Numbered from the stretch's first letter, positions 7,938 to 62,252 are shown. The stretch is DNA of 64,000 nt from an uncultured Acidobacteriaceae bacterium (GCA_963755765.1 CAVWKZ010000008.1:615695-679694); one strand, 5' to 3'. Notes: generated from the letters alone by a model not told the origin. Translations and numbers: made by a program.

Positions 7938-8003
7938 GCTCAGTGCGTTGGTTGTTCGCCAACGACCAACGACCAGCGACCAACGACATACAATGGAATC
8001 ACC

Positions 8004-8540: not shown

Positions 8541-8605
8541 GTTTTTTTCAAGAACCAAGAAAAGGTTTTTCTCGGCGCTTTCTGCGTCTCGGCGGTGAAT
8601 AAAGT

Positions 8606-10281: not shown

Positions 10282-10342
10282 GTGATAATGCAGTTAGCGG
10301 GCGGTACATTTTCCCGCGAGCGACAGCCCCTCGGAGGGTTCC

Positions 10343-10618
10343 ATGGAGGTATCGGTTGCATCGTCGAAACCGGCGCGGGTCGTTATGACCTGCCTTTTGT
10401 TCTCATGTACAGTACTGTCAATGTGGAAGGGATTTCTTCGGTTTGAGTGGGTGTTTTTCTTCTGCTTTGGCTTGTACTACATGATGTATCTCCCAAAACA
10501 AAAGGGGGAGGCTTTCGCGGCATACCTCAAGAGACCACGAACTGTCGCCTCGGTGGCGCTGCTGGTCGCGGCGGTAGCCGGAGCAGGATATAACCTGCAC
10601 GTTGCGTTTATGAAATAG
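10343..10618 (+). CDS. Hypothetical small membrane protein
   Basis: 91-aa ORF with hydrophobic segments (WVFFFCFGLYYMMYL; VASVALLVAAVAGAGY). No recognisable family, and the start is uncertain. Confidence 0.3.
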   Translation: MEVSVASSKPARVVMTCLLFSCTVLSMWKGFLRFEWVFFFCFGLYYMMYLPKQKGEAFAAYLKRPRTVASVALLVAAVAGAGYNLHVAFMK

Positions 10619-10689
10619 GCCGAACGAGATGGCCGCAAGATACCGCATCTAATCGCTACGAGTCGTTTTTCCTACGAAGGCATCAAAAT

Positions 10690-12159: not shown

Positions 12160-12162
12160 CAC

Positions 12163-12240
12163 CACGGAGACACAGAGACACGGAGAAAACCAAGATCTTT
12201 TTCTTTCTTGTTTTGCTTTTCTCTGTGTCTCTGTGCCTCA
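12163..12240. repeat. Intergenic inverted repeat built from the words gagacac/agagacacggag
   Basis: cacggagacacagagacacggagaaaa ... ttttctctgtgtctctgtgcctc, located between tldD and pmbA. Confidence 0.7.
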
Positions 12241-12261
12241 GTGGTAGATTCTGACCTTGAA

Positions 12262-43141: not shown

Positions 43142-43215
43142 TTTCCTGCGGAGCGCGACGTGCCAATTCTCTACAGGTTAGAATAGTTGATTACAAAGTT
43201 GCCAAGGATCAACCT

Positions 43216-43875
43216 TTGAACGAATCACCGAATCCAACGTCGAAGACCATCTATGTAACTCGGACCGGCCTCCCGCTCAGTTTTACGCTCGACTGGCCGT
43301 TCCGCCGAGCCACGTCCGGCGCGGACTTTGACGTCCTGCATACCACGATCACACTGGAGAATTCCGACGGCTTGCGCGCGCTCGTGGCCGTGAATCTTTC
43401 CGCCACTCTCCGGGAAGTGCTGCCTTCGCTCGAACCGAAAGACATGGAAAGTCCCGTCATCAATGCTCTGCGCAAGGAGGTCGACAACAAGCAGACCGAG
43501 TTCGTGAAATCCGGCAAACTGGTGCCGCTTCCATTGTCCAGCCGCCACTACAGTTTCAAACTCAAGCAATGGGTCTTCGGCAAGGCGACCGACGAAGAAA
43601 TCGCACGCATGATTGAGCGGAAGGTTTATTGGCAGACTCGCCTGGTCGGCGGAGATGTGTGGCTCGCCGACCCGACCGAGGCTCTCTATGTCGATACCAC
43701 CTCCGATCATATCGCTGAGATCGCTGCTCGACTTGTGCAGCAGGGTCAGTTCACCGTGGCCCAGCGCTATGCAACCGCGCTCCCGGCCCTGATCGATTAC
43801 GTGGGCCGTTTCGAATCCGAAATGGCCGCAGCCCGTCAGCAACTGGAGGAAAAGCACGCTTTTGAGCGCGGATAA
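43216..43875 (+). CDS. Hypothetical protein (start uncertain)
   Basis: Only the 3' third of the 475-aa ORF 42448-43875 is free of overlap with the preceding gene. TTG at 43216 is the first canonical start after 43141. No family recognised. Confidence 0.4.
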   Translation: MNESPNPTSKTIYVTRTGLPLSFTLDWPFRRATSGADFDVLHTTITLENSDGLRALVAVNLSATLREVLPSLEPKDMESPVINALRKEVDNKQTEFVKSGKLVPLPLSSRHYSFKLKQWVFGKATDEEIARMIERKVYWQTRLVGGDVWLADPTEALYVDTTSDHIAEIAARLVQQGQFTVAQRYATALPALIDYVGRFESEMAAARQQLEEKHAFERG

Positions 43876-44132: not shown

Positions 44133-44402
44133 ATGTCTCATAACGTACTTATACTGCGGGAAAGGTCGTCAGCCATGATAGAAGTACTGTCCCACGAAAA
44201 CGAAGAAAGAAGCTTCGCGGAGTTCCGCCGGAAGGTGCGCTCGGCGGAAGTTCTTTCGGCAGCAATGCAACGTCTGTTACAGGCAATTCACTTCACTGGT
44301 CGTTTGAGTGTCATTGTGCAGAACGGGCAGGTGCTCAAATCCGGCTACGAGGAGGGTTACTTCCGGCAGCCGGAGTCCGGAGCCCTAGCCAGACTGCAAT
44401 AG
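44133..44402 (+). CDS. Hypothetical small protein
   Basis: 89-aa ORF, or 75 aa from the ATG at 44175. It is the first gene after the AT-rich region. No family recognised. Confidence 0.45.
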   Translation: MSHNVLILRERSSAMIEVLSHENEERSFAEFRRKVRSAEVLSAAMQRLLQAIHFTGRLSVIVQNGQVLKSGYEEGYFRQPESGALARLQ

Positions 44403-46114: not shown

Positions 46115-46152
46115 CACTCGGAAATGAGTTGGAGGGGATATGCGAAAAGGGC

Positions 46153-46176
46153 GCCGCTCAATAGAGCGGCTTTTTT
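46153..46176 (+). terminator. Rho-independent terminator
   Basis: gccgctc-aata-gagcggc followed by TTTTTT. Confidence 0.85.
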
Positions 46177-46247
46177 ATTGGCCTGAACATTGGCCCGAGC
46201 ATCGGTCCGAACCACGGTCGCATGCGCTCGCGAGGAGAAAGAAAGAC

Positions 46248-46961
46248 ATGCCCAGATCGTTCGCGGTGAATAACAGCTGTTTCTTGACGCCTGCGAAAGT
46301 GGCGATTTTCCTGGTGGTGCTGCTGATGGTGTTGGCATCATCAACCACGTCGTGGGCACAAGGGCCGGCGCTGACAACGGTCGCCGGCACCGTGTATCGC
46401 GCGGACGGAACCGAGGCCGCGGGTGCGGTCCTGATTTCATGGCCGTCGTTCCAGTCCGCTGAGGGAGACGCGGTGGCTGCGGGCAATCTGGCGGTGACGA
46501 TCGGATCAGAAGGCGCGTTTACAGCACAACTGGTTCCGAACGTGGGTGCGTCTCCGGCGGGAACTTACTACGTGGTCGTATTCCAGCTGGATGATGGAAC
46601 CGTCCGGACAGAGTATTGGGCAGTTCCGGCAACATCGCCGACCACAATTGCCGCGGTGTTGACGACGCCCGGTACCGGATTAGGGAACCTTGCCGCGACA
46701 CAGGAATACGTGAATGCGGCAGTAGCGCCACTTGCGGTCGACGCCACGGTAGTGCACCTCGCGGGAGCGGAAACGATTACCGGCACAAAGACGTTTGCTG
46801 TGCCTCCGTCGCTTCCGGTGCCGACCGAGCCGGATGACGCTGCGAACAAGAGTTATGTGGATGAGGCAGTTGAAAACGTAGGCTCAGGAGCGTACGTGCC
46901 CCTCGCCGGCGGTACCATGACCGGCCCGCTGACTTTGCCGGGAGAAACGCCGTTGGTCTAA
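46248..46961 (+). CDS. Secreted protein with phage tail-fibre-like C-terminal motifs
   Basis: Signal peptide (VAIFLVVLLMVLASSTTSWAQG) and a carboxypeptidase-regulatory-like segment. These are followed by DDAANKSYVDEAV and YVPLAGGTMTGPLTL, motifs I associate with tail fibres. The ORF ends 6 nt before the convergent E2 gene. Confidence 0.55.
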   Translation: MPRSFAVNNSCFLTPAKVAIFLVVLLMVLASSTTSWAQGPALTTVAGTVYRADGTEAAGAVLISWPSFQSAEGDAVAAGNLAVTIGSEGAFTAQLVPNVGASPAGTYYVVVFQLDDGTVRTEYWAVPATSPTTIAAVLTTPGTGLGNLAATQEYVNAAVAPLAVDATVVHLAGAETITGTKTFAVPPSLPVPTEPDDAANKSYVDEAVENVGSGAYVPLAGGTMTGPLTLPGETPLV

Positions 46962-46967
46962 GCGTGG

Positions 46968-48263
46968 CTATCCGACTTCTTCGCCCCAATTTTCGAGCGT
47001 CTTCTTCACCAGGGCCATGAACTGGTCAGCAACGGCGCCATCGATGATGCGATGGTCGTAACCCAGCGTCAGGTGGACGACAGAACGAATGGCGATGGAA
47101 TCTGCGCCGTCTTTGTCGGTGATCACCATGGGCTGTTTGGTGATGCCGCCGACGCCCATGATGGCCACGTTCGGCTGATTGATGATGGGTAATCCGAATA
47201 CGGCCCCAAACTGACCGGGATTAGTGATGGTGAATGTTGCTCCTTCGACATCAGTCGGCATGAGCTTCTTGGTACGAGATCGCTCGCCCAGGTCGGTGAT
47301 GCCGCGCTGCAGCCCGAGGAAGTTGAGTTCGTCGGCGCTCTTGAGCACGGGAACGATGAGTCCCCAATCGAGCGCAACCGCGATGCCCGCATTGACGTGC
47401 TTGTGATAACGAATGTTGTCGCCTTCAAGCGAGCTGTTGACGATCGGATACTGCTGCAACGCGATGATGGCAGCGCGCACAAAGAAGGGCATGAAAGTAA
47501 GTCGCGCTCCGTGGCGCTGCTCAAAACCGTTCTTGAGCTTGTTGCGCAAATTGACGATGCGGGTAAGGTCCACTTCGAACATGCAGTGGACGTGAGCGCT
47601 GGTGCGACGCGATTCGATCATGCGCTGTGCAATGATCCTGCGCATGTTTGACATGGGCACCAGATCGCCCGGAATGGCGACTGGCGCTGGAGCCGAGGCT
47701 GGGCGAGCGACGGGAGCTGCAGTCGGAGTGGAAGTTCGAGAAGAACCGCGGTGCTCCACGAAATCGAGGACGTCCTGCTTAGTGACGCGCCCGCCGGTGC
47801 CCGTGCCACTCACCCTTGCGAGATCCACATTGTTTTCGCGGGCGAGCTTGCGGACCAGCGGCGAGGAGCGGACGTCGGAACCCTCTTCGTCGTCATTCTG
47901 CGGGGCGCTCGTGGCCGCTGCGGGCGGAGGAGCGGGAGCTTCCCTGGTAGCTTCCTTTTTTGCGGGCGCCGGAGCCGCGGGAGCAGGAGCAGTGGCCTTG
48001 GCGGATGCCGAAGCCGAAGCGCCGTTGCCGTCGCCGATCACTCCGACAACCGTGTTGACCTGAACTGTGCTGCCTTCAGAAACCTTGATTTCCTGAAGGA
48101 CTCCGCTGGCGGGTGCGGGAATTTCGGCGTCAACCTTGTCGGTCGAAATCTCGAATAGAGGTTCGTCGCGCTGGACCTTTTCACCAGTCTTTTTCAGCCA
48201 CTTGGTGATGGTCCCTTCGAAAATTGATTCGCCCATCTGGGGCATGACTACGTCAGTCGGCAT
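46968..48263 (-). CDS. 2-oxoacid dehydrogenase E2 component (dihydrolipoamide acyltransferase)
   Basis: Lipoyl domain (EISTDKVDAEIPAP), E3-binding domain (SSPLVRKLARENNVDL..V.GTG.GGRVTKQDV) and catalytic DHRIIDGA. The substrate class is not assignable from the sequence alone. Confidence 0.9.
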   Translation of the reverse strand: MPTDVVMPQMGESIFEGTITKWLKKTGEKVQRDEPLFEISTDKVDAEIPAPASGVLQEIKVSEGSTVQVNTVVGVIGDGNGASASASAKATAPAPAAPAPAKKEATREAPAPPPAAATSAPQNDDEEGSDVRSSPLVRKLARENNVDLARVSGTGTGGRVTKQDVLDFVEHRGSSRTSTPTAAPVARPASAPAPVAIPGDLVPMSNMRRIIAQRMIESRRTSAHVHCMFEVDLTRIVNLRNKLKNGFEQRHGARLTFMPFFVRAAIIALQQYPIVNSSLEGDNIRYHKHVNAGIAVALDWGLIVPVLKSADELNFLGLQRGITDLGERSRTKKLMPTDVEGATFTITNPGQFGAVFGLPIINQPNVAIMGVGGITKQPMVITDKDGADSIAIRSVVHLTLGYDHRIIDGAVADQFMALVKKTLENWGEEVG

Positions 48264-48416
48264 TGTTCCCTTTCCATAAAGCCCCGCGCGGATGGCGGGA
48301 GGGCAAAAAACATTATAGCGAAGGCGGGAGTAGCAGTGCTCGCGCCGTCACGAGTGCGCCGGAATCGCTTCGAGTTCACGGAGCAGTAAGGATAAGGGTT
48401 AAGGACTTAAAGACCG

Positions 48417-50480
48417 ATGAAGAAACTATTCTCAGTTGTATTTTTCTGTCAGCTAGCCTTCGGGCAAGCAGGATACTCGGGTTCCTGGCTGTCCTCGGGA
48501 TCCGCGGCGTATGGCGCCGCGGCTGGAGCACCCGCGTTTTTCGCCGCGCTGCCCTTGAATTGGGTCGACAACACGGTCTGCAATCCGCCCGACGGCACCT
48601 ACGATACGACCGTGATCCTCGGCACCACCAACAACATTGGCCCGAATGTCGCGGGAAGTTCGATCGGCTCTCCCTACGCTTTGACGCCCGCGGGCTTGCT
48701 CGATGCCATGAATAACTGGCGCGACAACGCTGACAATGCCAGCCAGACGCCGCACTTTGCCGACAAGTGGTGGCTGATCGAAGTGCCCGCCGAGAGCACC
48801 GGCACGGTCCTGCATGGTTCGACGTTTGACGCCAACAACGCCCTGATCAGCCTTCCTGGCAAAGTGAATGGCTCGACCGAGCCCGCGAAATGTCTGGTCA
48901 TCGATTCCACCACTCCCCTGACCGCGGGCCAGATGGCTTGCGCACGCGGGCTGCCCGGCTTTGGGGGGGCGCGCAATCCAGGCTGCGCCTCGCCCAACGA
49001 CAAGAACTCGATGTGGAAGGTGCAACTCGACTCTGTCCCCGCGCCTGGCTATATCGGCGTCTACCTGGGTGAGGATCTGGCGAATCCGTCCTTCTGCCCC
49101 GCGGGTGGCTGCTGGGTCAATCACGTCGTCCTCAAGGACATCGAAGTGACGCTGGCACCCGGAGCGGCGCAGAGCGCGGCCAATGTTCACGCGCCGCAGT
49201 TGTTGCAAGTCAACAGCAACCCGCTGAATATCATTCCCTGCGTAGGCTGCCAGGCCGTGGATTACATTGGGCTCGACCGCTACTACGTGCATGGCTGGGA
49301 CCCCGGCGACGCAGGCCAGCCTTCGGGTGCATGCGCGGCGTGGACCAATACCGGTACGGTTACGGTCGCTGCGGACGGCTACGGCAACAGCACAGTCACC
49401 CGCGTCAGTGGCGCTTATTACGGTATGACGTTCACCGTGGGATCGTCGGTTACCATCAACGGCTCTACGTACAGCATCGCCAGCGATGCCTCCGGCCTGA
49501 CCGCTGGCATTCTCAACGGCACGCAAAACGCGCAATTCACCATCACCGGCACCCCGGCGGTTTCCGGCACGGTGTCGCTTTCGCAATCGAATCCGCCATC
49601 GCAGTATGCCAACGGCTGCGGCGACGATGTGCAGACTGCGGTGCAGTTCCATTGCGACTACTGCTGGCGTCAGAACGGCTACATCGAGAAAATCCACTGG
49701 TGGGGCGGCGAGTCTCATGCGTCAGCGCAAGGCTTCAATAACGGCCCGGAAAAGGAAGTGGACAACTGGGAGGAGGGCGGATCAGCCGCCTGGTTCAGTG
49801 GCGGCGCTGGGGTCGATTCGCGCGGCGGCCCCGGATCAGACAACGAGATCCGGCGCAACTATTTTGGCCGCGACCTGAACTACCGGCAGTTGACGGGAGC
49901 GGCGCTGCGCAGTCCCTCGCCGCCCTGGGGCTGTGGCAACGTCGATGGCACCTCTTCCCACAACACCTGCCCTTTCAGTTGGGCAGTCAAGAACTCGGTG
50001 GAACTGAAGCTGGGCCATCGCAATCTGTTTGACGGCAACATCATCGAAAATTCCTGGGCCGACGGGCAGTCCGAGTGGTGCATCGTGGTCAGCCCGCGGA
50101 CCTGCTCGGGCGGCCAAACCTGCGGGATCTACGATTCGGTCACCGGCTTGCCGCGGACTTACATTGACAACATCCGAATGTCGAATAACTGGATCCGCAA
50201 CTGCCCGTCGGCCGCGAGCACCGGAAGCCGCTCGGGGAGTGACGGTAACGGCGGTGGCGTCAGTCTGCCCTCAGAGGACAACGACTACATCAACAACCTC
50301 TGGTCGAACATTAATGATGTGAACCAGACCGGCAATCCGGACAATCAGTGGGAGTGGGGCCAGGGGCAGGATTACTTTACCTGCGCCATGTCCTATACGT
50401 TCGAGCAGCCCGTACACGGTCACCGCGCAGTGTGTTCCCTACCAGCAGGACATTTCCTGCAACATCTCAAAGATTGCTAG
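48417..50480 (+). CDS. Large secreted Cys/Gly/Asn-rich protein, possibly beta-helix
   Basis: 687 aa with signal peptide MKKLFSVVFFCQLAFGQA and many paired Cys. Repeats such as NxxxNNWIRN suggest a parallel beta-helix, but this is a weak impression. The last 25 or so residues look non-native (see findings). Confidence 0.6.
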   Translation: MKKLFSVVFFCQLAFGQAGYSGSWLSSGSAAYGAAAGAPAFFAALPLNWVDNTVCNPPDGTYDTTVILGTTNNIGPNVAGSSIGSPYALTPAGLLDAMNNWRDNADNASQTPHFADKWWLIEVPAESTGTVLHGSTFDANNALISLPGKVNGSTEPAKCLVIDSTTPLTAGQMACARGLPGFGGARNPGCASPNDKNSMWKVQLDSVPAPGYIGVYLGEDLANPSFCPAGGCWVNHVVLKDIEVTLAPGAAQSAANVHAPQLLQVNSNPLNIIPCVGCQAVDYIGLDRYYVHGWDPGDAGQPSGACAAWTNTGTVTVAADGYGNSTVTRVSGAYYGMTFTVGSSVTINGSTYSIASDASGLTAGILNGTQNAQFTITGTPAVSGTVSLSQSNPPSQYANGCGDDVQTAVQFHCDYCWRQNGYIEKIHWWGGESHASAQGFNNGPEKEVDNWEEGGSAAWFSGGAGVDSRGGPGSDNEIRRNYFGRDLNYRQLTGAALRSPSPPWGCGNVDGTSSHNTCPFSWAVKNSVELKLGHRNLFDGNIIENSWADGQSEWCIVVSPRTCSGGQTCGIYDSVTGLPRTYIDNIRMSNNWIRNCPSAASTGSRSGSDGNGGGVSLPSEDNDYINNLWSNINDVNQTGNPDNQWEWGQGQDYFTCAMSYTFEQPVHGHRAVCSLPAGHFLQHLKDC

Positions 50481-50499
50481 CATCTCGAACGTCGTCACT

Positions 50500-51624
50500 G
50501 TGTATGACGGCGAGCGCATGGACCCACTTCTCTGTACGTCTGGGAACACCACGGCTTGCGCCGCTGCCGGGCAGACGATAGTCATCTCTAACCACCCCGG
50601 CTGGAACGGCGCGTTCGCCATGTCGGGAACGAGCGGCAACTGGGCGGCGGCCGGCACCGGCGGCAACAACGTCATCTACACCGACCCCGTCAACGCTCCC
50701 GGAACGGCCACGCTCTGCGACAACACCACTTCGACCAAATGCTCAGCGCTGCTCAATACGGGAGACGTGACCTTCGCCTCGCTCGGTTTTAAGATGACCG
50801 ACATTTCGGTGGGCGACGATGTTTACGCTTATAACCTCGGCGGCGGCGACACCACCTGCACCGGTAACGGCTATGCGGTGGGCGCGGCTTCGCCGGCGGT
50901 TTATGCGATCACCGGCACGGTGACGACGGGGATGACCGTCCAATACCAGATCGCCACGCAACCGAGCGCGGGGAGCGCCAACTGCATCATTAACAATGGC
51001 GCCGGCTTCCCGAAGTACATCACGTTCCAGTCGAACACCTGGCTCAGTCCCAACCAAAGCACCATCCAGAACGGCCAAACCTGGCAGCAGGAGATCGGCA
51101 ATCAGATATTCAATAACGTGTGGGCCGACAACGATTCAGGCTACAACTCAGACGTAAACTGCAACGGCGCAACCAAGGAAGGCACCTTGTCTTTCGCCTG
51201 TTGGGACGCGAACACTTTTCAGTTCTATAGCAACGTGATGACGGGCCGGAACAGCGCTTATTGGAGCGTGGTGAGCTGCCCCGGTGGAAACTGCACGAAT
51301 GCCTTCCCTGCCACCGTGAACTGTGCCGGATCAAGCGCGGACCCAACCTGTCTCGGCTACGAGGGTTTTATGGGATCCAGTCCGACCGTAACATATCCCG
51401 CTGGAGCCTGCGTCTACGACGGCTCTAACCCATTCAACTGTCCTTTGATGGCGCTACCGTGGGCCAACAACTTCACCTATACGGACGTGTCTTACGTTGG
51501 CTCCAGCTCCTACTCCACCCAGGGAGTCAACACAACGCAACTGAACAACGCCATGACCCAGACCGAGTACGTCTGTCCCGCTGGTGGTAACTGCGGAGCG
51601 CACGGACCTTACCCAGATAACTAG
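50500..51624 (+). CDS. Cys/Gly/Asn/Thr-rich extracellular-type protein without its own signal peptide (may be the continuation of 48417-50480)
   Basis: 374 aa from a GTG start. Its frame is open upstream to 50323 and reads protein-like sequence from about 50410 onward. Confidence 0.5.
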   Translation: MYDGERMDPLLCTSGNTTACAAAGQTIVISNHPGWNGAFAMSGTSGNWAAAGTGGNNVIYTDPVNAPGTATLCDNTTSTKCSALLNTGDVTFASLGFKMTDISVGDDVYAYNLGGGDTTCTGNGYAVGAASPAVYAITGTVTTGMTVQYQIATQPSAGSANCIINNGAGFPKYITFQSNTWLSPNQSTIQNGQTWQQEIGNQIFNNVWADNDSGYNSDVNCNGATKEGTLSFACWDANTFQFYSNVMTGRNSAYWSVVSCPGGNCTNAFPATVNCAGSSADPTCLGYEGFMGSSPTVTYPAGACVYDGSNPFNCPLMALPWANNFTYTDVSYVGSSSYSTQGVNTTQLNNAMTQTEYVCPAGGNCGAHGPYPDN

Positions 51625-51666
51625 CGGCGAGCGTCGCATGAAAACTGCGCATGGAGCATACCCACA

Positions 51667-52113
51667 TTGAACCTTACTCCCCACTTTACTTTGGAAGAGA
51701 TGACTTATTCGGAAGCGGCCACACGCCTTGGCCTCGACAACACGCCAACTCCGGCGGTGGCAGCTAACCTGAGCCTTGTAGCTGCATTCATGGAAAGAAT
51801 AAGGACGCTGCTCGGCGACAAGCCCATCGTTGTGCACAGCGGCTATCGCTCGGCGGAGGTGAACCAGGCGGTGGGCGGAGTGAACACAAGCGCTCACTGC
51901 CACGGCCTGGCGTGCGACTTCGTTTGCCCCGATTTCGGTAGTCCAGCGGAAGTCGCGTTGGCCATCATGAAGTCCGACATCGAATACGACCAACTCATCC
52001 TCGAGTACGGGTGGGTGCACTTTGGTCTGTCGCAAGAAGGATTGTTATCCCGCCACGAAGCCTTCACGAAGCGTTCGCCAAAGGCGGCGTACGAGCCCGG
52101 CATCAGAGTTTGA
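51667..52113 (+). CDS. Peptidase M15A-type cell-wall hydrolase (endolysin-like), no signal peptide
   Basis: HFTLEEMTYSEAATRLGLDNTP... then VHSGYRSAEVNQAVGGVNTSAHCHGLACDF and WVHFGL (the H/D/H zinc pattern of Peptidase_M15_3). TTG start. Confidence 0.8.
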   Translation: MNLTPHFTLEEMTYSEAATRLGLDNTPTPAVAANLSLVAAFMERIRTLLGDKPIVVHSGYRSAEVNQAVGGVNTSAHCHGLACDFVCPDFGSPAEVALAIMKSDIEYDQLILEYGWVHFGLSQEGLLSRHEAFTKRSPKAAYEPGIRV

Positions 52114-52185
52114 TGCCTTCACGCCCCACTATCTCAATCGTCGTAACGCCATCATGTCGAAGCGCCATCATAAGGAGATAATATT

Positions 52186-52368
52186 TTGAAAAAGTACGCT
52201 CCCTATCTACCCACAGTTGTGTTACTGCTCACCGCGCTCGCAAACGCCGCGACGCCGGCGATTGCAACGTTCTGGACGAATCATGCCGCAGCGGCAGCGG
52301 TCTTTGCTCCGCTGGCCGTTATTGTGGCGCACTGGCTGCCTTCGCCATACACCGGTGCGAAGTCATGA
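52186..52368 (+). CDS. Holin-like small membrane protein (two TM segments)
   Basis: 60 aa. TM1 is LPTVVLLLTALANAA and TM2 is AAAVFAPLAVIVAHWL. TTG start. The stop overlaps the next start (ATGA). Confidence 0.4.
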   Translation: MKKYAPYLPTVVLLLTALANAATPAIATFWTNHAAAAAVFAPLAVIVAHWLPSPYTGAKS

Positions 52369-52697
52369 TGACACTGGCGCAGATCGCTCCCACTTTTTGG
52401 ACCAGCTATGGCGCAGCCGCGATTGCTCTCGTCGGCTTTCTTCTGAACGGCCTTCTCGCATTCGGGGCGGCGCAGAAATTGGCTGGCCAACGCGAGCAGC
52501 AGGGACTCGCCGATCAGGCGTCGAAGAAGGAGCACATGGCGCAGTCCAACGTGCGTGATATTGCCATCGCGGCGCTGCAGGCCATGGGAAACAGCAATGA
52601 GGCTACTGTAAAAGGCATTCAAGGGCAGCTGCTTCTAATCCAGGCGGAACTTCAGGAGCTTCGCAACCGAGCAGGGTCGTCGCGCGACCGCAGGTAA
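52365..52697 (+). CDS. N-terminally membrane-anchored helical protein (i-spanin-like architecture)
   Basis: 110 aa with TM segment YGAAAIALVGFLLNGLLAFGAA, then a charged helical region (GIQGQLLLIQAELQELRNR). Confidence 0.4.
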   Translation: MMTLAQIAPTFWTSYGAAAIALVGFLLNGLLAFGAAQKLAGQREQQGLADQASKKEHMAQSNVRDIAIAALQAMGNSNEATVKGIQGQLLLIQAELQELRNRAGSSRDRR

Positions 52698-52731
52698 TTC
52701 AATTCCGAAAATAAAAAGGGGAGAACTGTTT

Positions 52732-53337
52732 ATGAGAAAAGTTCTTGTCATTTCGTTGTCTCTGGCCATGTTCTGCACCGGATGTTCGACCGCGTGGGTG
52801 TCAACGCTCGATTCCATCTTGGCCGCGGCAGCGCCGGCGCTGATCAACGTTCTGCAAATCGTGGCTGTCGCCAACGGCCAACCGGTGAACAGCATCCTGG
52901 CAGCGAAGGTTAATGCCGACGCTACGATCGTGAAAACGCTGGCCGCCGACTTTGCAAAAGCGTCGTCAGCAGGCCCCCCGGGAGCTTGTCAACAGTTGCA
53001 AGCGGCCGTGAGCGCATACGAAGCCGATCAGCAACTCGTGCTTCAGGCGGCACAACTTAGCGATCCAAGTACGCAGACGAAGATTACTATGCTGGCTGAC
53101 TTGGTGGCAGGCACGGTGAGCGCGATCACTGCTGTGATTCCGTCATGTGGGAGTACTGCTTCGTTCCAAAATATGAAGGCCGCACCGCCCTACAGCCTCT
53201 CTTCCTTTGTCGCTCATTACAACCGCATCCTCGTGGCGCCCACGGGGAATGCAGCGGTGGATGCAGCTACCCGGAAGCTTAAGCTCCATCAACACTCCGC
53301 TCTTGTGCGGTCGGTGACTTTCGGACGGATCCAATAA
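52732..53337 (+). CDS. Lipoprotein, Ala-rich helical
   Basis: Signal peptide with lipobox LAMFCTGC|S. 201 aa. Confidence 0.6.
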   Translation: MRKVLVISLSLAMFCTGCSTAWVSTLDSILAAAAPALINVLQIVAVANGQPVNSILAAKVNADATIVKTLAADFAKASSAGPPGACQQLQAAVSAYEADQQLVLQAAQLSDPSTQTKITMLADLVAGTVSAITAVIPSCGSTASFQNMKAAPPYSLSSFVAHYNRILVAPTGNAAVDAATRKLKLHQHSALVRSVTFGRIQ

Positions 53338-53420
53338 CAAATCGTGCCGGTTGCCTGCGCTCCCGGTTTTCTTGCGCCGATTTCGGGAGCGCCTGAATCT
53401 AACAGCCAAGGCAGGTACAA

Positions 53421-54035
53421 ATGGCTCACGCAAAAGAAACCGCGCACGTGACAAGAATTTCAGACGATGCCCTGAACCAGATCTTTCTACAGGCCCGCAC
53501 CCATAATGCGTGGCTTCCTCGCCGCGTGCCCTTGGAAAAGTTGCGCGAAGTTTATGACCTCGCGCGCTGGGCCCCGACCAGCGCGAATTCCAGTCCCGCT
53601 CGTTTCGTATTCCTCGAAAGCGAAGCAGGTAAGGCACGCCTTCTGCCCGCGCTCGCTCCCACCAACGTCGAAAAGACAAAGGCAGCGCCAGTCACCGTAA
53701 TCGTCGCTTGGGACGCCGAGTTCTACGAGAAACTCCCCAAGCTGTTCCCCCACGCCAATATGCGTCCTTTTTTTTCAGGCAACCAGTCGCTGGCCGAAGA
53801 GACGGCGTTCCGCAACAGCTCGCTCCAGGGAGGCTATTTCATTCTCGCCGCTCGAGCCGTCGGACTTGATTGCGGCCCGATGTCCGGCTTCGACAAGGGG
53901 AAGGTGAACGCGGAATTCTTTCCCGACGGCAAATGGAAAACCAACTTCCTCTGCAATCTCGGCTATGGCGATCACACCAAACTGTTTCCGCGTAGTCCGC
54001 GCCTTGAGTTTGAGGAGGCTTGCCGGGTGCTCTGA
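53421..54035 (+). CDS. Nitroreductase family protein (RutE/YdjA-like)
   Basis: [40 protein letters not shown] is the typical N-terminus of this nitroreductase subfamily. Confidence 0.8.
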
Positions 54036-54082
54036 GGAGAAGGCTGGAGACGCGGCGAAGCGCGCCAGGAGCTTCGTGCAAC

Positions 54083-55819
<1,737 letters not shown>

Positions 55820-55970
55820 TGTATTTTATATGGGAAGAGCGGATTCGCGGGCTCAGGCTGGATTCAGAGCTCTGGCGCCGCGGTCAGAGAAGTAGCCCGC
55901 GTGATAATCTCCGAGGAGAGCCGGCTTCCTTTCTGTTATCGCCGTTGGAAGCCGTCGGCTTCAATCTTTT

Positions 55971-56801
55971 ATGGCAAATTGCGTTCAATGCGGTCGTCAG
56001 CTTTCCGCTCTTACCTTTGGCAAAAAGATCTGCCCATGGTGCAAGCAGCACGAAGCTGCCCAGCGCGGCGAGGATTCCCCGGTCCAGCGAGTCGAACCCG
56101 CGCCCTGGGTGCAGCGACAATCCAGTTCGATGGTGGTCACTCAGGCAATTTTCGGCATCAACGTAGCGGTCTTCGCGGCCATGCTGCTGGCTGGTGTATC
56201 ACCCGTAGATCCGACCGGCCAGCAACTGGTGGACTGGGGAGCAAATTTCGGCCCTTATACCATCGGTGGCCAGTGGTGGCGGCTGCTGACCTGCGTCTTC
56301 GTCCACATTGGCATCATGCACATCGCCCTTAACATGTGGTGCCTGTGGGGTCTGGGCAGACTCGCCGAGTCGGTCTACGATCGCTGGACCTTCGGCGCGA
56401 TCTACCTGATCACCGGCTTGTCGGCAAGCGTGGCCAGCCTGATTTGGAATCCGGTGGGCGTAAGCGCGGGAGCTTCGGGGGCAATCTTCGGAATCGCCGG
56501 AGCTCTGATTGCCGCTTTTTATCTAGGCGAATTTTCCCTGCCAAAAGCCGTGGTTTCAGGACTTCTAAGAAGTGTGCTGAAGTTCGCCGGCTACAACCTT
56601 GTACTCGGAGCCTTCTTGGGCCACACCGACAACGCCGCTCACGTTGGCGGGCTTGTTTCGGGCTTGATTCTCGGCGCGCTGATCGCCAAAGTCGCTCCGC
56701 AACGGGATGAGTTTGGTCGGCGCCTGGCCGTCCTGTTATTTGGGATTCTGCTGGTCTTCGTCGGAGCGGTCTGGTTGCGGCATGCGCATCCTCATTTTTG
56801 A
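55971..56801 (+). CDS. Rhomboid family intramembrane serine protease with N-terminal zinc ribbon
   Basis: CVQCG...CPWCK. WWRLLTCVFVHIGIMHIALNM, the GASGAIFG catalytic Ser motif and the AAHVGG His motif. Confidence 0.9.
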   Translation: MANCVQCGRQLSALTFGKKICPWCKQHEAAQRGEDSPVQRVEPAPWVQRQSSSMVVTQAIFGINVAVFAAMLLAGVSPVDPTGQQLVDWGANFGPYTIGGQWWRLLTCVFVHIGIMHIALNMWCLWGLGRLAESVYDRWTFGAIYLITGLSASVASLIWNPVGVSAGASGAIFGIAGALIAAFYLGEFSLPKAVVSGLLRSVLKFAGYNLVLGAFLGHTDNAAHVGGLVSGLILGALIAKVAPQRDEFGRRLAVLLFGILLVFVGAVWLRHAHPHF

Positions 56802-56827
56802 GGCAGATCGCCGCCTAGAGCTGTCGC

Positions 56828-58276
56828 CTAAAGCTTCTGAATGGCGTGCGCAATTCTCGCCAGCGTAGTTTCCTTTCCCAGAACCTCCAGCGTTTCAAAT
56901 AACGGCGGAGCATTCTTCCGTCCGCAAACCGCGACTCGAATCGGTTGAAACATCTGTCCCGCCTTGAGACCAAGTTCCTGTGCTGCGGCACGGAGAGCTT
57001 GGTCCAGCGGATCATGTTTGAATTCCGTTTGCGCCAAAACTTCTCTAGCGCGGGTCAAAACTTTGAGCGCCATAGCCGCGTCGCCTTTTTGCGGGATGAG
57101 TTCGGCCGGGTCGTAGGGTGGAAGCTCGTCCACCAGGAAAAAATCGGCCGCGGTCAGAACGTCGCGCAGCAGTTTGATGCGCTCACGAATAAGCGGAGTA
57201 ATAGCCAGCATTTTCTCCGGCGCAATCGGGAATCCAGCGGCGTGGACAATCGGGAGCAGCCGCGCGCTGAGTTCGTCGACGGAAAGCCCGCGGATGTGCT
57301 CAGCGTTCAGCCAGACGGCTTTGGGGTCAAACGTTTCGTCGGGTGTTGCCGCCGGCTCTTTGAAATTAATGACCGCGTTAGAGCGATTGATGCCTTCCAG
57401 AGAAAAGACGTCAATCAGTTCCTGCCGGGTCATGTTTTCACGATCGTCTTTCGGCGACCAGCCCAGCAGGCAAAGAAAATTTATGAAGGCTTCCGGCAGG
57501 AATCCGGCATCGCGATACGTGGTAACGCTGACCACTGGGCCATGTCGGCGCTTGGACAGCTTAGATCCATCAGGCGCGACCAGCAGCGGAAGATGGGCGA
57601 ACTGCGGCGGCTTGGCGCCCGCGCCTTCGAAAATCAGCACGTGCTTGTAGGTATTCGAAAGATGATCCTGGCCGCGAATAACATGGCTGATCCGCAGATC
57701 GATATCATCGGCGCAAGACGCGAGATGATAAGTGGGCATTCCATCGGACCGCAGCAGCGCGAAGTCTTCGATGTCGTCCGCCGATTTGATTTGCTCGCCA
57801 TAAACCGCGTCGTGGAAACGTACCTGCTCGCCGGCGCCGCGCGGAACACGGAAACGAAGAGCGAAAGACTCTCCGGCGTCAGCCCGGCGATCGCTTTCGG
57901 CGCGGGAAAGCTCGCGCATGCCCGGGTTAAAGAGCCACGTTTGATTCGCACCGGACTTTTCAGTGTCGCCCGTGTGTGCGGGCGTAAAGTCGCGATAAGC
58001 CAAGCCCTTCCGAAAGATAGCGTCGGCGATCTGGCGATGCAGAGCCAGACGTTCGGACTGCTTGTACTCCTCGTCCCACCCCAGATCGAGCCAGCGCAGC
58101 CCTTCGAAGATGGAATTAACGGAGGCGTCGCTGTTGCGCTCTACATCGGTGTCATCCAGGCGCAGGACCATAGTTCCTCCATTGCGACGGGCGTAGAGCC
58201 AGTTAAAAATGAAGGTCCGGGCACTGCCGACGTGTAGAAAACCGGTGGGAGACGGGGCAAATCGAACGCGAAGCAT
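56828..58276 (-). CDS. gltX: Glutamate--tRNA ligase
   Basis: [19 protein letters not shown] (HIGH-like) and KLSKRRHG (KMSKS). I trimmed the start to the ATG at 58276. Confidence 0.95.
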
Positions 58277-58578
58277 GACTGTTGAGTATAACGGGTTCGA
58301 CCCGCCGCGGAGGCGGAGCAAACCCTCTCTCCCCCCGGCAAATCAAGGTGGTTACCAAGCGATTACGAAGGTAACTCTCCGGCTGAAGATCGCTCTAGCG
58401 CCGTCGCATCACATAAGAAGATACTCTTTGGAACGCCGTGCCCAGGGCGGAACCTGCCAGAAACACCTGTTGTTTCGATCTGTTTCGTGTGACAGGATTA
58501 AGCCAGCACTAAGCCAGTATTCAGCCGACGAGAGTTCCGTCCGGGCGGCAAATCACGAGTGTTTAGGAATATGAATCA

Positions 58579-61500
58579 ATGAGCAGCGTTGCCACAGGTT
58601 TGATACTCATCCCCGGGGTCGTGGCCCTGCTGGTGCTCCTCGTCTTCACCTACCTGTACGAGCAGAACCGCCACAGCTATTTTCGCGCCTGGCAACTCGC
58701 CTGGGGAGCATATACGCTCCACTACGCTCTCAAGGCGTTCGAATATTTTCAAGGTCCTTCTCCGATTTTGTTTTTTCTGAGCTCTCTACTGCTGGTGGCG
58801 ATGGCGATTTGCATCTTCGTCTCGACCCGGCTGATGAAGGAACCGTTTCAGCTGAAATGGTATGACGTTGCCCTGACCGTAGTCGCGGTTCTGCTGGCAT
58901 ATGGGAACCTGCGGGCGCAAATGGTGAACGGGAGATTCGTCGAGAGGGCGGATCTTGTACCCAAATATCTAAGGCTGGAACTCGGATTGGCAGCGGTGCT
59001 GCTCTATTGCTCTTTCCATTTTTACCGTTACGCTTTTCGCCGAAATTCCGTCGCCTTTCGCATGCTCGCCTTTTCGCTGGCGCTCTGGGCGGCGCTTATG
59101 GCCGTCGGGCAGCTCCAGCAACCTTTCGTTGAATTCGTTGGCCAGCTCGGGGGGTTCCTGGGGCCGATTCCGCAGATGCTCCTGGCCATCTCCATGGTGA
59201 TGGTGTTATTTGAAAACGAGCGCAATGCGGTGCAGGAAAATGCCTTGGCGTTCTCGACCCTGGGCGTCGATCCGCGTCGCTTGCTATCGGCATCCGACCT
59301 GGTCCCCAGTTTGCAGGCTTTCGTAGACAGATTAGTGGCGCCGTTGCCAAAACGCCGCGCCGTATTTTTTGTTTCCGAGCAGTGGCGAGGTACCTTGCCT
59401 TCGGTGCAAAAGGGCTTTTCGGCGGAGTTCCTTGAAAAGCTGCACAAGACACATGCCGGGGACTACATCGCCGAGCTCGCCTACCGGCGCGGCGGTGTGG
59501 TCACTTTCCGCAGTCTCCCCGAGCTCGAAGAGCCCTTGCCCGCGCTTTCAGGAGGAAAGTTCGAGGCCTGCAAGCAGGCGCTGCTGGCGGAGGGAATCAC
59601 CGACCTCATGGCGGTGAGTCTGCAAACGCGCGAGCACAACTTCGGAGTTCTTCTGTTTCCCCACGCCGAGCGGCGGATGTTCGGCTCTTCGAACTTGCGG
59701 CTGCTCATCGGTCTGTCTCTGCAGATCGCGTTAACCCTCGAAAACTACGTCGTAATGCACGAAGCCCAGCGCCGAACCAAAGAATACGAACTCCTCACCG
59801 AGATCGGGCAGGCCATCAGTTCCCATCTCAACCAGGACGAAGTACTGCGCACAGTGCAGGCAGAACTCGGCCAGATTTTCGACACCACCAATTTCTACAT
59901 CGCCTTCCAGGAAGAAGACGAGATTCACTTCGAGCTGGAAATCGAAGGCGGCGAAGTTCTTCCCAAGCGTTCGCGGAAACTCTGCAATGCACTGACCGAG
60001 TACATCATCCGAACCGGGCAGCCCCTGCTGATCGAATCCGATCTCGAGCAGATGCGATCCAGACTGGGCGTCGATTTCGTGCCGCCGCGTCCGGCCAAAT
60101 CGTTCTGCGCCGCGCCCATTCTGCTGGGCGGACGACCCATGGGCGTGATGGCGGCGCTGAGCACCGATCGGGAATCGCAGTTCCTGCCAAGAGACCTCGA
60201 GGTAATGCAAACCGCTGCCGGCCAACTGGGGGTGGCTGTCGAGAATGCGCGCCTGTTCACCGAAGAGCAGCGCCGCGCCCGGCATCTCGCATTCTTGAAC
60301 AACATTTCAAAACTGGCCATCTCAAGCGAAGACGCCGAGCAGATGATGGCCAATATCGTGCGCGAAATCCAGAAGAACTTCCGCTACGATCACATCGGCA
60401 TCGGCATCATGGACTACGCCACCAAGGACATCGAGATCAAAGCCGAAGCCGGTACGGCATCGCAAACCCTGGGGCGCCGGATCGCGTTGGGCAGCGGAGT
60501 TCTAGGCAAGGTCGCGCGCACCGGAGTGAGCGCTCTGGTGCAAAACGCCGGCCCCGGACAGCTCCCCGGCGTGCTCCCGGAATCGCGCGCCGTCCTCTGC
60601 CTGCCGATCAGCTACGGCGAGTCGCTGCTTGGTGTGCTCAATGTGGAAAGCCGCGACGAAAATGCGTTCGCACCGCAGGATGTTCTCATCCTGAATACGC
60701 TGGCAGATCTTCTGGCGACGGCGCTGCATAACTCTTTCGTCTTCCAAAAGCTGCAACAGCAATCGATCACCGACGGTTTGACCGGCATCAAGACGAGACG
60801 CTTTTTCTGGGAGGCGCTGAGCTCGGAGTGGAAGCGCGCGTCGCGTTCCGGCCGCCCATTCTCGGTAGTGCTGGTCGACTTGGATAAATTCAAAGAGGTC
60901 AACGACACTCTCGGCCACCTGGAAGGCGATCTGGTTCTGGCCCGGGTTGGCCGGCTGCTCGAACAGAAGTGCCGCCAGTCGAACGTCGTTGCCCGCTACG
61001 GCGGAGACGAATTCATCATCCTCATGCCCGAGACCGGCATCGAGCAGTCGCAAGTGCTGGCGGAGAGATTGCGGTTGTGGCTGGCCACCGATCCGATGCT
61101 CGAAGAACACCACATCACCGGCAGTTTCGGCGTTGCCAGTTTCCCGGTTCACGGATTCTCCATGGAGGACCTGATTCGCGTGGCCGACGCCGGCATGTAC
61201 GTGTCTAAGCACGCGGGGGGTAACCAGGTTTCCACTTCCGATGCGTTCGGCGAAAATTCGGCGGTGCAGCGGCAACTGATCTCCGGTTATATCGAAGGCT
61301 TTCTGCAGCGCGAGCATAATGGGCCGGAGCACCTCGAAGAACTGGTCAGCACTCTGCGCAAGCTGTGCGGAAGCGAGGATCCGGCGGACCAGAAGGCGAT
61401 CAAGGAGGCGGTCGAAGCCTTGTCGCACGCGGCCGAATTGAGGCAGCACAACGCCGCCGGACATGGCGAGCAGTGCCGTCACTATGCCAGCGTCATCGCG

Positions 61501-61962
61501 CGCGGGCTGAACCTCCCTGATCAGGAAGTCGAAGACGTCGCCTTCGCCGCACGAGTGCATGACGTAGGCAAACTCTTTATCCCCGAGCGAATCCTCAATA
61601 AGGCGGGCGCACTCAGCGAAGATGAGTTCGTAGTGGTCAAGACCCACCCGCAAGTCGGGGCGGAGGTGGTGCGAGCCATTCCTGCCATCGAGCGCGTAGC
61701 TCACGCTATCGAATGCCATCACGAAGCGTTCGACGGTTCTGGCTATCCTTTTGGATTGAAGGGCGAGAATATACCACTCTATGGGCGCATCGTCGCTGTC
61801 GCCGACGCCTATGTCAACATGACCAGCGATCGTTCTTTCGCCCCTCCCAAGACCGACGAGCAAGCGATGGCGGAACTGGGAAAGCAGAGCGGCACTCGCT
61901 TCGACGGCATGATCGTCCGCCTATTCGCCCGCCTGCTCAAGATGGAAAGAGCCCCCCACTGA
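58579..61962 (+). CDS. Membrane sensor with GAF domains, GGDEF diguanylate cyclase and HD-GYP phosphodiesterase domains
   Basis: About 7 N-terminal TM helices and GAF-like regions. RYGGDEFIILMPE (GGDEF). HDVGKLFIP and HHEAFDGSGYP (HD-GYP). Length 1127 aa. Confidence 0.9.
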   Translation: MSSVATGLILIPGVVALLVLLVFTYLYEQNRHSYFRAWQLAWGAYTLHYALKAFEYFQGPSPILFFLSSLLLVAMAICIFVSTRLMKEPFQLKWYDVALTVVAVLLAYGNLRAQMVNGRFVERADLVPKYLRLELGLAAVLLYCSFHFYRYAFRRNSVAFRMLAFSLALWAALMAVGQLQQPFVEFVGQLGGFLGPIPQMLLAISMVMVLFENERNAVQENALAFSTLGVDPRRLLSASDLVPSLQAFVDRLVAPLPKRRAVFFVSEQWRGTLPSVQKGFSAEFLEKLHKTHAGDYIAELAYRRGGVVTFRSLPELEEPLPALSGGKFEACKQALLAEGITDLMAVSLQTREHNFGVLLFPHAERRMFGSSNLRLLIGLSLQIALTLENYVVMHEAQRRTKEYELLTEIGQAISSHLNQDEVLRTVQAELGQIFDTTNFYIAFQEEDEIHFELEIEGGEVLPKRSRKLCNALTEYIIRTGQPLLIESDLEQMRSRLGVDFVPPRPAKSFCAAPILLGGRPMGVMAALSTDRESQFLPRDLEVMQTAAGQLGVAVENARLFTEEQRRARHLAFLNNISKLAISSEDAEQMMANIVREIQKNFRYDHIGIGIMDYATKDIEIKAEAGTASQTLGRRIALGSGVLGKVARTGVSALVQNAGPGQLPGVLPESRAVLCLPISYGESLLGVLNVESRDENAFAPQDVLILNTLADLLATALHNSFVFQKLQQQSITDGLTGIKTRRFFWEALSSEWKRASRSGRPFSVVLVDLDKFKEVNDTLGHLEGDLVLARVGRLLEQKCRQSNVVARYGGDEFIILMPETGIEQSQVLAERLRLWLATDPMLEEHHITGSFGVASFPVHGFSMEDLIRVADAGMYVSKHAGGNQVSTSDAFGENSAVQRQLISGYIEGFLQREHNGPEHLEELVSTLRKLCGSEDPADQKAIKEAVEALSHAAELRQHNAAGHGEQCRHYASVIARGLNLPDQEVEDVAFAARVHDVGKLFIPERILNKAGALSEDEFVVVKTHPQVGAEVVRAIPAIERVAHAIECHHEAFDGSGYPFGLKGENIPLYGRIVAVADAYVNMTSDRSFAPPKTDEQAMAELGKQSGTRFDGMIVRLFARLLKMERAPH

Positions 61963-61976
61963 GGCGGATCGCGGCT

Positions 61977-62252
61977 CTAGCTCAGCGTTAGCACCAGCTT
62001 TGCGTCTTTAGGCAGGTAGCTCTTGCGGCGAAACCAGTCTTCGATCGCATCCCGCAGCTGATCCAGCGGGACATGCGTTCCGATTTCCAGGCACCCGTCA
62101 GCCACCGGCAGCGTATCGTCAAAAACCGGCGCGTTGGTGAAGTTGCGCATGCTGAAATTGTCCAGCCATTTCAAGGGACAGAGATGGATCTGCCCGTCGT
62201 GCTCGTATTCCACGCGAACTTTGCGGGCGAACATGTCTTGATTTAAGCACAA
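61977..62252 (-). CDS. Hypothetical protein
   Basis: 91-aa ORF (alternative ATG at 62234). No family recognised. Confidence 0.35.
   Translation of the reverse strand: MCLNQDMFARKVRVEYEHDGQIHLCPLKWLDNFSMRNFTNAPVFDDTLPVADGCLEIGTHVPLDQLRDAIEDWFRRKSYLPKDAKLVLTLS

Follow-up and report, generated by a model that had tools for sequence, protein, structure and literature searches.

The window analysed here, a 64,000-nucleotide stretch from an uncultured Acidobacteriaceae bacterium (GCA_963755765.1, CAVWKZ010000008.1:615695-679694, one strand), carried at positions 51667-53337 a cassette of four genes, for an M15-type cell-wall peptidase, a 60-residue protein with two transmembrane (TM) segments, a 110-residue membrane protein and a 201-residue lipoprotein. 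On balance, the cassette was probably a working lysis module that belongs to a phage-derived, domesticated element of Terriglobales and is now autonomous, similar in effect to a type 10 secretion system (T10SS). Order and reading frame were kept in 73 species representatives, and the four-gene block is, on this comparison, well beyond chance. Because portal, adaptor and other phage-like genes adjoined the cassette in at least 28 relatives, it arose, as judged from gene neighbourhood, as a phage-like element's lysis end and not as a dedicated secretion system. By comparison with these relatives the window is a deletion derivative, in which the regulatory and lysis ends were kept and the head-tail genes were gone.

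An initial annotation of the window had described four co-oriented, tightly packed genes, and all four open reading frames (ORFs) were found there on the plus strand (Table 1). M15 was separated from the 60-residue gene by 72 bp, the 60- and 110-residue genes overlapped by 4 bp (ATGA), and 34 bp separated the 110-residue gene from the lipoprotein gene. The four products were also as described: the M15-type hydrolase matched Pfam Peptidase_M15_3 and had no signal peptide or hydrophobic segment by hydropathy, the 60-residue protein had TM segments at 7-29 and 31-53, the 110-residue protein was anchored by segment 11-37 with a charged, helical remainder, and the fourth was a lipoprotein, with a signal peptide followed by a Cys18 that did not vary. 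A GGAG-type ribosome-binding site preceded each of the four genes, and a scan of the intergenic stretches gave no terminator-like sites between them. A sigma-70 scan for an operon promoter gave nothing above chance. The 153-bp divergent spacer between the gene for dihydrolipoamide acyltransferase (E2) and the large gene preceding the cassette (48264-48416) contained an invariant CATTATAGCGAAG. Its minus-strand reading is TATAAT, which, judged from its orientation, most likely belongs to E2 and not to the cassette operon.

The M15 protein had no exact match in the contig collection, and the locus was surveyed with the lipoprotein as marker and one genome per species (73 species representatives, loci L057-L129). 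Gene order was fixed across the representatives, with E2 (minus strand), a large protein, M15, the 60-residue protein, the lipoprotein, a nitroreductase, glutaminyl-tRNA synthetase (GlnRS; minus strand), a rhomboid protein and glutamyl-tRNA synthetase (GluRS; minus strand). The order of the M15, two-TM and lipoprotein genes was fixed in at least 66 species, and in about 60 related species a large secreted protein was encoded directly 5' of the cassette, in the same orientation. The window was collinear with its closest relative (L001) from 46940 to 62000, at 87.6% DNA identity. Ratios of nonsynonymous to synonymous divergence (dN/dS) of cassette and flanking genes were calculated by Nei-Gojobori with the window as reference, and synonymous divergence (dS) was similar across the genes compared (Table 1); against the closest relative, dN/dS of the cassette was 0.08-0.17 at a dS of about 0.4. 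Pairwise protein distances followed those of GlnRS with Spearman coefficients of 0.65 (M15), 0.49 (60-residue protein) and 0.37 (lipoprotein); distances of other housekeeping genes followed those of GlnRS with coefficients of 0.42-0.52. The dN/dS values of the cassette and its co-divergence with GlnRS therefore indicated inheritance with the chromosome and maintenance by selection.

Collinearity with the relative ended left of E2, where the relative carried genes of 325, 781 and 361 residues. The 781-residue protein led to an IMG/VR contig (L138/L139, UViG_3300027854_000335), on which upstream genes matched PHROG families of large terminase (E 1.7e-22), portal (E 3e-36) and head-tail adaptor (E 4e-13). 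The terminase was seen on viral-database contigs L138 to L140, with further large secreted fibre-like or beta-helix proteins upstream of it, and no integrase was found within the element sequence available. On a long genomic contig (L144; head-tail cluster at 1-13516), no terminase gene was called; its left part consisted, in order, of a divergent Peptidase_S24 repressor-like gene, a 75-residue gene, a sigma-70 region-4 gene, a dual-specificity phosphatase, a 62-residue ORF and the portal. Eight genes followed the portal, then genes of 782 and 315 residues, E2 (minus strand) and an 893-residue protein, and the right end was made up of M15, 69-residue, 111-residue, lipoprotein, Peptidase_C1, nitroreductase and GlnRS genes. 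From gene sizes alone, the gene set of the element looks podovirus-like.

A complete 781-residue gene adjoined E2 in 28/73 loci, and the head-tail cluster was present in at least 28 relatives. The structural genes of the relatives had dN/dS of 0.05-0.11, and distances of the 781-residue protein followed those of GlnRS (Spearman 0.58). The initial annotation had regarded the cassette as an orphan without phage structural genes; this stood for the window, where genes of the related cluster had no match, and was not upheld for the family, in which such genes lay across E2. Its proposed check, that the block be found next to large secreted proteins in relatives free of prophages, failed for the family on the same count. 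E2 was found in every locus whose contig extends that far, and no E1 or E3 gene stood beside it in the window. It was encoded on the opposite strand, with one half of the phage-derived element on either side of it, and marks the site without being a working part of the element.

Terminase, portal, adaptor and putative tail proteins of the related cluster had no match in the 64 kb, the window ORFs being scanned in part against phage families, and the Peptidase_S24 repressor-like gene of L144 had no match in the window. Other genes of the regulatory left end were retained (Table 1). The sigma-70 region-4 protein matched PHROG phage sigma and activator families at E 3e-6 to 8e-3 and is a candidate late-gene activator of the element; its start was overlapped by the end of the zinc-ribbon gene. 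The phosphatase, a conserved partner of the sigma-like gene, was also found in the 15 relatives without head-tail genes at the site. Between the phosphatase and E2, a 273-residue gene spanned the deletion junction: its N-terminus was 57% identical to the 62-residue ORF that follows the phosphatase on L144, and its last residues (..GETPLV) were the C-terminus of the 315/361-residue gene that precedes E2 in complete elements.

The junction of the window was also present in two relatives (L066, L070) at about 75% protein identity, with intact cassettes, and the deletion allele is therefore old. In other lineages the junctions differed, e.g., a fibre-gene N-terminus that ran, after about 90 or about 150 codons, into roughly the final 60 residues of the 781-residue gene. 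At least 3 junction types occurred in different lineages, so that head-tail genes were lost several times. M15, the 60-residue protein and the lipoprotein were all intact in 17/23 loci without head-tail genes and in 19/28 loci with them, where intact was an approximate category (tblastn coverage of at least 93% and no stop) and only loci with enough flank were counted. Neither a tRNA nor att-like direct repeats nor a GC anomaly marked the locus as integration scars; GC content was 54-62% in 2-kb steps across the window, as in Terriglobales (Acidobacteriota), and 57-59% around the cassette.

Table 1. Features of the window, with position, strand, dN/dS and basis of assignment (aa, amino acids; AF2, AlphaFold2)
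Feature	Position	Strand	dN/dS	Basis
M15_3 zinc peptidase, phage-type endolysin	51667-52113	+	0.14	148 aa, TTG start; ORF call, Pfam, PHROG
60-aa two-TM protein, holin-like candidate	52186-52368	+	0.12	ORF call, hydropathy
110-aa type-II membrane protein, accessory, i-spanin-like	52365-52697	+	0.12	ORF call, hydropathy, alignment
201-aa lipoprotein, helical bundle, conserved core component	52732-53337	+	0.15	ORF call, lipobox, AF2 model
Large secreted Cys-rich right-handed beta-helix protein, ~1060 aa, frameshifted	48417-51624	+		ORFs, orthologues, AF2 model of orthologue
E2 dihydrolipoamide acyltransferase, host-type landmark	46968-48263	-	0.10	Pfam 2-oxoacid_dh, Biotin_lipoyl, E3_binding
Fusion/remnant gene, 273 aa, secreted fibre-like	46140-46961	+		BppL_N / tail-fibre motif; deletion junction
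Dual-specificity phosphatase, 154 aa	45650-46114	+		Pfam DSPc E 6e-9; 84% identical to L144 phosphatase
Sigma-70 region-4-only protein, 194 aa	44805-45389	+		Pfam Sigma70_r4_2 E 8.3e-7; 78% identical to L144 gene
Zn-ribbon protein, 105 aa	44491-44808	+		Weak Pfam zinc-ribbon matches; element membership from position only
Small protein, 89-aa ORF, regulatory left end	44133-44402	+		87% identical to L144 75-aa gene; no family match
Nitroreductase, flank			0.11	
GlnRS, flank		-	0.07	
Rhomboid, flank			0.14	
GluRS, flank		-	0.04	

It was decidedly improbable that the cassette serves as the lysis module of gene transfer agent (GTA)-like or inducible-prophage particles whose head-tail genes lie elsewhere in the genome. 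The strong purifying selection on the head-tail genes of relatives and their co-divergence with the host were in favour of this explanation, as was the coverage of the genome, which was limited to 64 kb. The lysis genes of the Rhodobacter GTA are separate from its head-tail cluster, which also counted for it. Against it, no structural protein was matched in the window, no close homologue of the 781-residue protein is recorded for the 1.17-Mb contig to which the locus belongs, and the deletion junction indicated that the local copy was lost and not moved.

The M15 protein is, by homology, a phage-type endolysin. It matched Pfam Peptidase_M15_3 at E 4.7e-18 (65.7 bits; curated cut-off 23.2) and PHROG 894 'endolysin' at E 1.1e-35, and the SGYR motif, the zinc ligands H77-x6-D84 and H118 were invariant in an alignment of bacterial and phage M15 copies. 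Endolysin gp23 of Burkholderia phage KS9, the gene of which sits between holin and Rz/Rz1 and directly after the tail tip fibre, was 57% identical to M15. In IMG/VR, 52 phage loci carried M15 homologues (identity up to 61%), one of them with tail-fibre genes followed by the endolysin between two small TM proteins. Among five loci in which M15 was absent and the lipoprotein persisted, M15_3 was replaced in three (L093, L079 and L096) and the slot was empty in the other two. The replacement was a M15_4/VanY-type peptidase by Pfam in L093 (9285-9773), and genes resembling DUF2778 / L,D-transpeptidase, by eye only, in L079 (9283-9714) and L096 (9452-9871); a different small TM protein stood alongside in L093 and L079. 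Because non-orthologous hydrolase-like genes occupied the same position, the endolysin slot behaves like that of a lysis module.

An export signal was lacking in M15, the only match among PDB sequences (single-sequence and profile search) was 1LBU, a Streptomyces zinc D-Ala-D-Ala carboxypeptidase, and NCBIfam gave a weak MepK match only. These results would suit a cytoplasmic housekeeping peptidase of the VanX or murein-recycling type with unrelated membrane proteins as neighbours, and hence no lysis system at all, which was scarcely credible given the identity of 57-61% to phage endolysins inside lysis cassettes, the phage-type M15_4/VanY endolysin and other hydrolase-like genes in the same slot, and the fixed order with the two-TM and lipoprotein genes. 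A search of all PDB sequences detected no link between M15 and ChiX-type entries, and the likeness to the M15 endopeptidase of T10SS drawn in the initial annotation was not borne out in sequence. PADLOC models gave chance-level matches only with the cassette proteins (E >= 0.003), and a defence-system reading was dropped.

The large gene upstream of the cassette had been taken for giant secreted proteins of about 1,060 residues, rich in Cys. The product was Cys-rich (36 Cys in about 1042 residues) with a Sec signal peptide (MKKLFSVVFFCQLAFGQ, then AGYSG), and its two ORFs, 48417-50480 (687 residues) and 50500-51624 (374 residues), were a single gene split by one extra T. The extra T lay within ACGTTCGAGC, near 50398-50400, where orthologues read CAMSYT-GSG-PYTVT; the second frame, read backwards, continued the beta-helix protein, and orthologues were intact at about 1071 residues. 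Sequencing error was ruled out as the cause of the frameshift by an independently assembled sequence (99.6% identical, three amino-acid differences) with the identical shifted C-terminus. When the closest orthologue was taken as reference, dN/dS of both halves of the gene was still about 0.15-0.17, and the frameshift is therefore recent. The AF2 model of an intact orthologue (P0272; 33 homologues) was a right-handed parallel beta-helix (predicted local distance difference test, pLDDT, 77; predicted template modelling score, pTM, 0.81). Foldseek matched it to GH110 galactosidases, the Klebsiella K1 capsule lyase and AlgE4, and also to tailspikes of phages phi297, Det7, HK620, Sf6 and CBA120.

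The slot between E2 and M15 was hypervariable. In relatives it held at least 6 unrelated families of proteins of 700-1500 residues, which had only their first 40-70 residues in common, with signal peptide MKKFLAVVVFCLPAFGQ followed by AAYSG. The allele of the window differed from that of the closest relative at a dS of 1.2-1.4, against 0.3-0.5 in the rest of the locus. The other slot families had no Pfam match except a weak one to Beta_helix/NosD in one family. In some loci the common leader (window 48417-48480 and the corresponding slot in L057-L129) stopped after MKKFLAVVL and gave way to a second signal peptide, which suggests recombination breakpoints inside the leader codons.

T10SS are regarded as phage lysis cassettes put to a new use, in which the lysis of a subpopulation of specialised cells sets proteins free (PMC10847048), and the repeated loss of head-tail genes with the cassette kept fits such repurposing. 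The further proposal of a dedicated T10-like secretion of the Sec-exported beta-helix protein, with or without lysis and with the 110-residue protein and the lipoprotein as inner- and outer-membrane spanins (i- and o-spanin), was rather unlikely. It accorded with the adjacency and co-orientation of the cassette and the large secreted protein, seen in about 60 species irrespective of the family that filled the slot, with the retention of the cassette at sites that had lost the head-tail genes, with a cargo fold of glycan-degrading enzymes, comparable to Serratia chitinases, and with the description of T10SS as holin/endolysin/spanin clusters outside phages, beside regulators and essential genes (PMC10847048). 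It was at odds with the ancestral arrangement, in which the cassette was contiguous with phage-like structural genes such as portal and adaptor, and with the frameshift of the putative cargo next to an intact cassette. Most known T10SS cargo has no signal peptide (PMC10847048) and the beta-helix protein has a Sec leader; the absence of the 110-residue gene from 56/73 loci and a lipoprotein unlike o-spanins (a helical bundle of 201 residues with no family match) also stood against it. Of the T10SS-like release put forward in the initial annotation, a lysis cassette outside an intact prophage was upheld for this genome; a dedicated secretion system as its origin and the neighbouring protein as its cargo were not supported.

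The endolysin/holin/i-spanin/o-spanin logic first read into the cassette held as a phage-type lysis cassette and was weak as a spanin pair. The 110-residue gene was present in 17/73 loci; its product had the architecture of an i-spanin, a type-II protein with a coiled-coil-like ectodomain, though with a short predicted periplasmic part (about 70 residues), and matched PHROG Rz-like spanins only weakly (E=0.078). Profile searches otherwise identified Peptidase_M15_3 and no holin family. The 60-residue protein was found in 70/73 loci at 65-90% identity and its C-terminus was only weakly charged. A 62-residue two-TM homologue (hidden Markov model, HMM, E 2.5e-5; shared motif VAH(W/L)(L/M)PSP) preceded a 35%-identical lipoprotein.

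The lipoprotein had 607 close homologues, all from Terriglobales metagenomes, within a wider family of about 300 clusters at 50% identity. Its lipobox was FCTGC, then S, in the window and canonical in the wider family (e.g., VSGC, then S), with an invariant Cys. The AF2 model consisted of four long helices and short C-terminal ones (pLDDT 75, pTM 0.70), and Foldseek gave no significant match in the PDB (best E 0.85). Helices 25-49 (window 52804-52878) and 118-140 (53083-53151) had TM-like hydrophobicity (Kyte-Doolittle 2.09 and 1.89 over 17 residues), although the modelled four-helix bundle looks soluble. Speculatively, and from hydropathy alone, these helices recall the buried hairpins of colicin/Bcl-2-type pore-forming domains.

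A signal-less papain-like peptidase (Peptidase_C1, PHROG 16701) was encoded directly 3' of the lipoprotein in 60/73 loci, and its start often overlapped the lipoprotein stop (e.g., L003, 10606-11358). A 40%-identical homologue of the lipoprotein also had a Peptidase_C1 gene directly 3'. A 34%-identical homologue sat in a run of small co-oriented genes, in the order fibre-like, 84-residue holin-like, 75-residue TM with coiled coil, M15_4 endolysin, lipoprotein, 66-residue TM and PHROG 19005 cysteine peptidase. The tail-gene block of phage MW202816 ended with a holin-like four-TM protein, a 122-residue lipoprotein, an amidase and a cysteine protease homologue, and cysteine peptidases related to the papain-like gene adjoined endolysins in this phage and on contig L135. 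Because it was seen both around distant homologues and in a phage, the association of a small TM protein, a lipoprotein, a murein hydrolase and a cysteine peptidase is recurrent; the distant lipoprotein contexts came from short metagenomic contigs (L130, L134 and L135) and are suggestive only.

Several results weighed against a functional and autonomous lysis module. The relatives were metagenome-assembled genomes only, viewed over 10 kb either side of each locus. The 60-residue protein matched no Pfam, PHROG, NCBIfam or PADLOC family, holins included, and was missing in 3 loci that keep the lipoprotein; its holin activity would follow from topology, position and conservation. The lipoprotein likewise had no match in Pfam, PHROG, NCBIfam or PADLOC, spanins included, and its part in lysis, like its outer-membrane role, is inferred. 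Both proteins were absent from IMG/VR (searched with three members of the lipoprotein family), from INPHARED and from the 52 phage loci with a related endolysin (searched by HMM), and may be of non-phage origin. M15 was missing in five loci that kept the lipoprotein. In the lineage of the window, the neighbouring beta-helix gene was frameshifted and the papain-like peptidase gene was missing, the latter also from the closest relative, either of which is possible early decay. The closest relative L057 retained head-tail genes; this lineage may therefore have lost them, or gained the deletion allele by recombination, only recently.

These last results, together with the deletion itself, were also what an inert relic would predict, that is, a prophage grounded by a recent deletion, with a signal of selection that predates the loss of the head-tail genes. 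A relic was nonetheless quite unlikely. The four ORFs were intact and had ribosome-binding sites, dN/dS of 0.08-0.17 over a dS of about 0.4 is hard to square with more than a short neutral phase, the two relatives that share the junction had intact cassettes, and so did 17 of the 23 loci without head-tail genes. The alternative of a decayed prophage remnant, named in the initial annotation, was accordingly borne out in its phage-derived origin and not in its decay, the retained genes evolving like housekeeping genes.

Under the reading of an autonomous lysis module, the complete ancestral element would have begun with repressor-like, small-protein, sigma-like and phosphatase genes, followed by genes for secreted fibre-like/beta-helix proteins, terminase, portal, a probable capsid, adaptor and the 781-residue protein. 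To their right would have stood E2 on the opposite strand, the hypervariable beta-helix protein, the endolysin, the two-TM protein, an optional TM protein with coiled coil, the lipoprotein and the papain-like peptidase. Rightward co-transcription would start from the spacer between E2 and the large gene, possibly under the sigma-like activator, and M15, the sequence of which has no export signal, would build up in the cytoplasm. At a trigger point the 60-residue protein would permeabilise the inner membrane, as its topology, position and conservation suggest, and M15 would reach the murein and, according to its family and intact zinc site, cleave peptide stems or cross-links. In the weakest step of the scheme, the outer-membrane lipoprotein and the 110-residue inner-membrane protein would finish the rupture of the envelope, the lipoprotein perhaps breaching the outer membrane by insertion of its hydrophobic helices. 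The presumed outcome is a controlled lysis of a subpopulation of cells that frees cell contents and periplasmic proteins, e.g., the beta-helix enzyme, and for which phage particles would not be needed.

Compared with the T10SS of Serratia (ChiWXYZ = SmaLC) and Yersinia entomophaga (YenLC), the cassette was alike in being chromosomal, in combining holin-like, endolysin and envelope-spanning accessory genes near regulators or essential genes (here E2, nitroreductase, GlnRS and GluRS) and in lying beside a secreted protein like a glycan enzyme. It was also alike in the phage-endolysin-type hydrolase with an intact active site and no export signal of its own, and in lying outside an intact prophage in this genome, a feature that holds only for alleles without head-tail genes. 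It differed in having no Rz/Rz1 pair and, instead, the 201-residue helical lipoprotein and, in most relatives, the papain-like peptidase; in the Sec signal of the neighbouring protein; in the lack of a ChiX link of M15; and in the linkage to head-tail genes in many relatives. The host belonged to Acidobacteriota and not to Enterobacterales, and the cassette is known here from its genes alone. Membership of the cassette in T10SS is, on gene content, unproven. Among the papers searched, none described the locus, or a GTA or T10SS in Acidobacteriota.

The o-spanins of Rz/Rz1 pairs are small, proline-rich outer-membrane lipoproteins, always paired with an i-spanin and encoded inside its gene, overlapping it or right behind it, whereas the cassette lipoprotein had 201 residues, was all-helical and occurred without the 110-residue gene in 56/73 loci; only its position right behind the i-spanin-like gene and its lipobox agreed. 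The cassette resembled gp22-gp24' of KS9 (holin, M15 endolysin, Rz, Rz1) in its endolysin, in its position after a large fibre/tailspike gene and in its small TM partners. It differed from KS9 in the order of endolysin before two-TM gene, in having no embedded Rz1, in unrelated accessory sequences, and in being fixed in the chromosome, co-diverging with the host and kept without virion genes.

The complete element of the relatives was similar to GTAs of the RcGTA type in consisting mainly of structural and lysis genes at one site, with vertical inheritance and purifying selection. The release of GTAs also depends on an endolysin/holin pair. Unlike RcGTA, the window had no head-tail genes and the complete element had an S24 repressor-like and a sigma-like activator gene; the cluster of the relatives matched generic phage terminase, portal and adaptor families only. 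In Pseudomonas aeruginosa, the R/F-pyocin lysis cassette causes explosive cell lysis; it lies within the tailocin cluster and serves tailocin release. Like the module proposed here, it is a domesticated phage cassette in the chromosome, and when it is switched on part of the population lyses and public goods are set free. The present cassette differed in that no tail-sheath or tail-tube family was matched among the cluster genes of the relatives and in that it persists after the loss of particle genes.

T10SS-type cassettes are known from a few enterobacterial pathogens and their phage descent is assumed, while here the transition was visible across related genomes: the same locus had head-tail genes in at least 28 species and lacked them in at least 23, with several junctions, and the lysis genes were conserved in both. 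If the proposed function is correct, the range of domesticated lysis systems would come to include Acidobacteriota, a phylum that is dominant in soil but has been little studied, and in peat and soil controlled lysis would be a possible means of releasing polysaccharide-active enzymes, DNA or particles. The 60-residue protein with the 201-residue lipoprotein, and the papain-like peptidase, would be candidates for a spanin-independent breach of the outer membrane. The occurrence of at least 6 unrelated large proteins behind one signal peptide at one site raises the question whether the cell surface or the secretome is under diversifying selection. A more far-reaching view, possible but doubtful, was that of a GTA-type particle-forming element whose lysis end was repeatedly exapted, independently of the capsid genes, for the autonomous release of hypervariable beta-helix glycan enzymes. 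In this view, a new outer-membrane lipoprotein family, a helical bundle that buries a hydrophobic hairpin and is usually coupled to the papain-like peptidase, would take the place of spanins.

At the left boundary of the element (window 41909-43875, plus strand), two long overlapping ORFs of 410 and 475 residues had no family match. The 410-residue ORF resembled a polytopic membrane protein, and the C-terminal half of the 475-residue ORF read as a real soluble protein.

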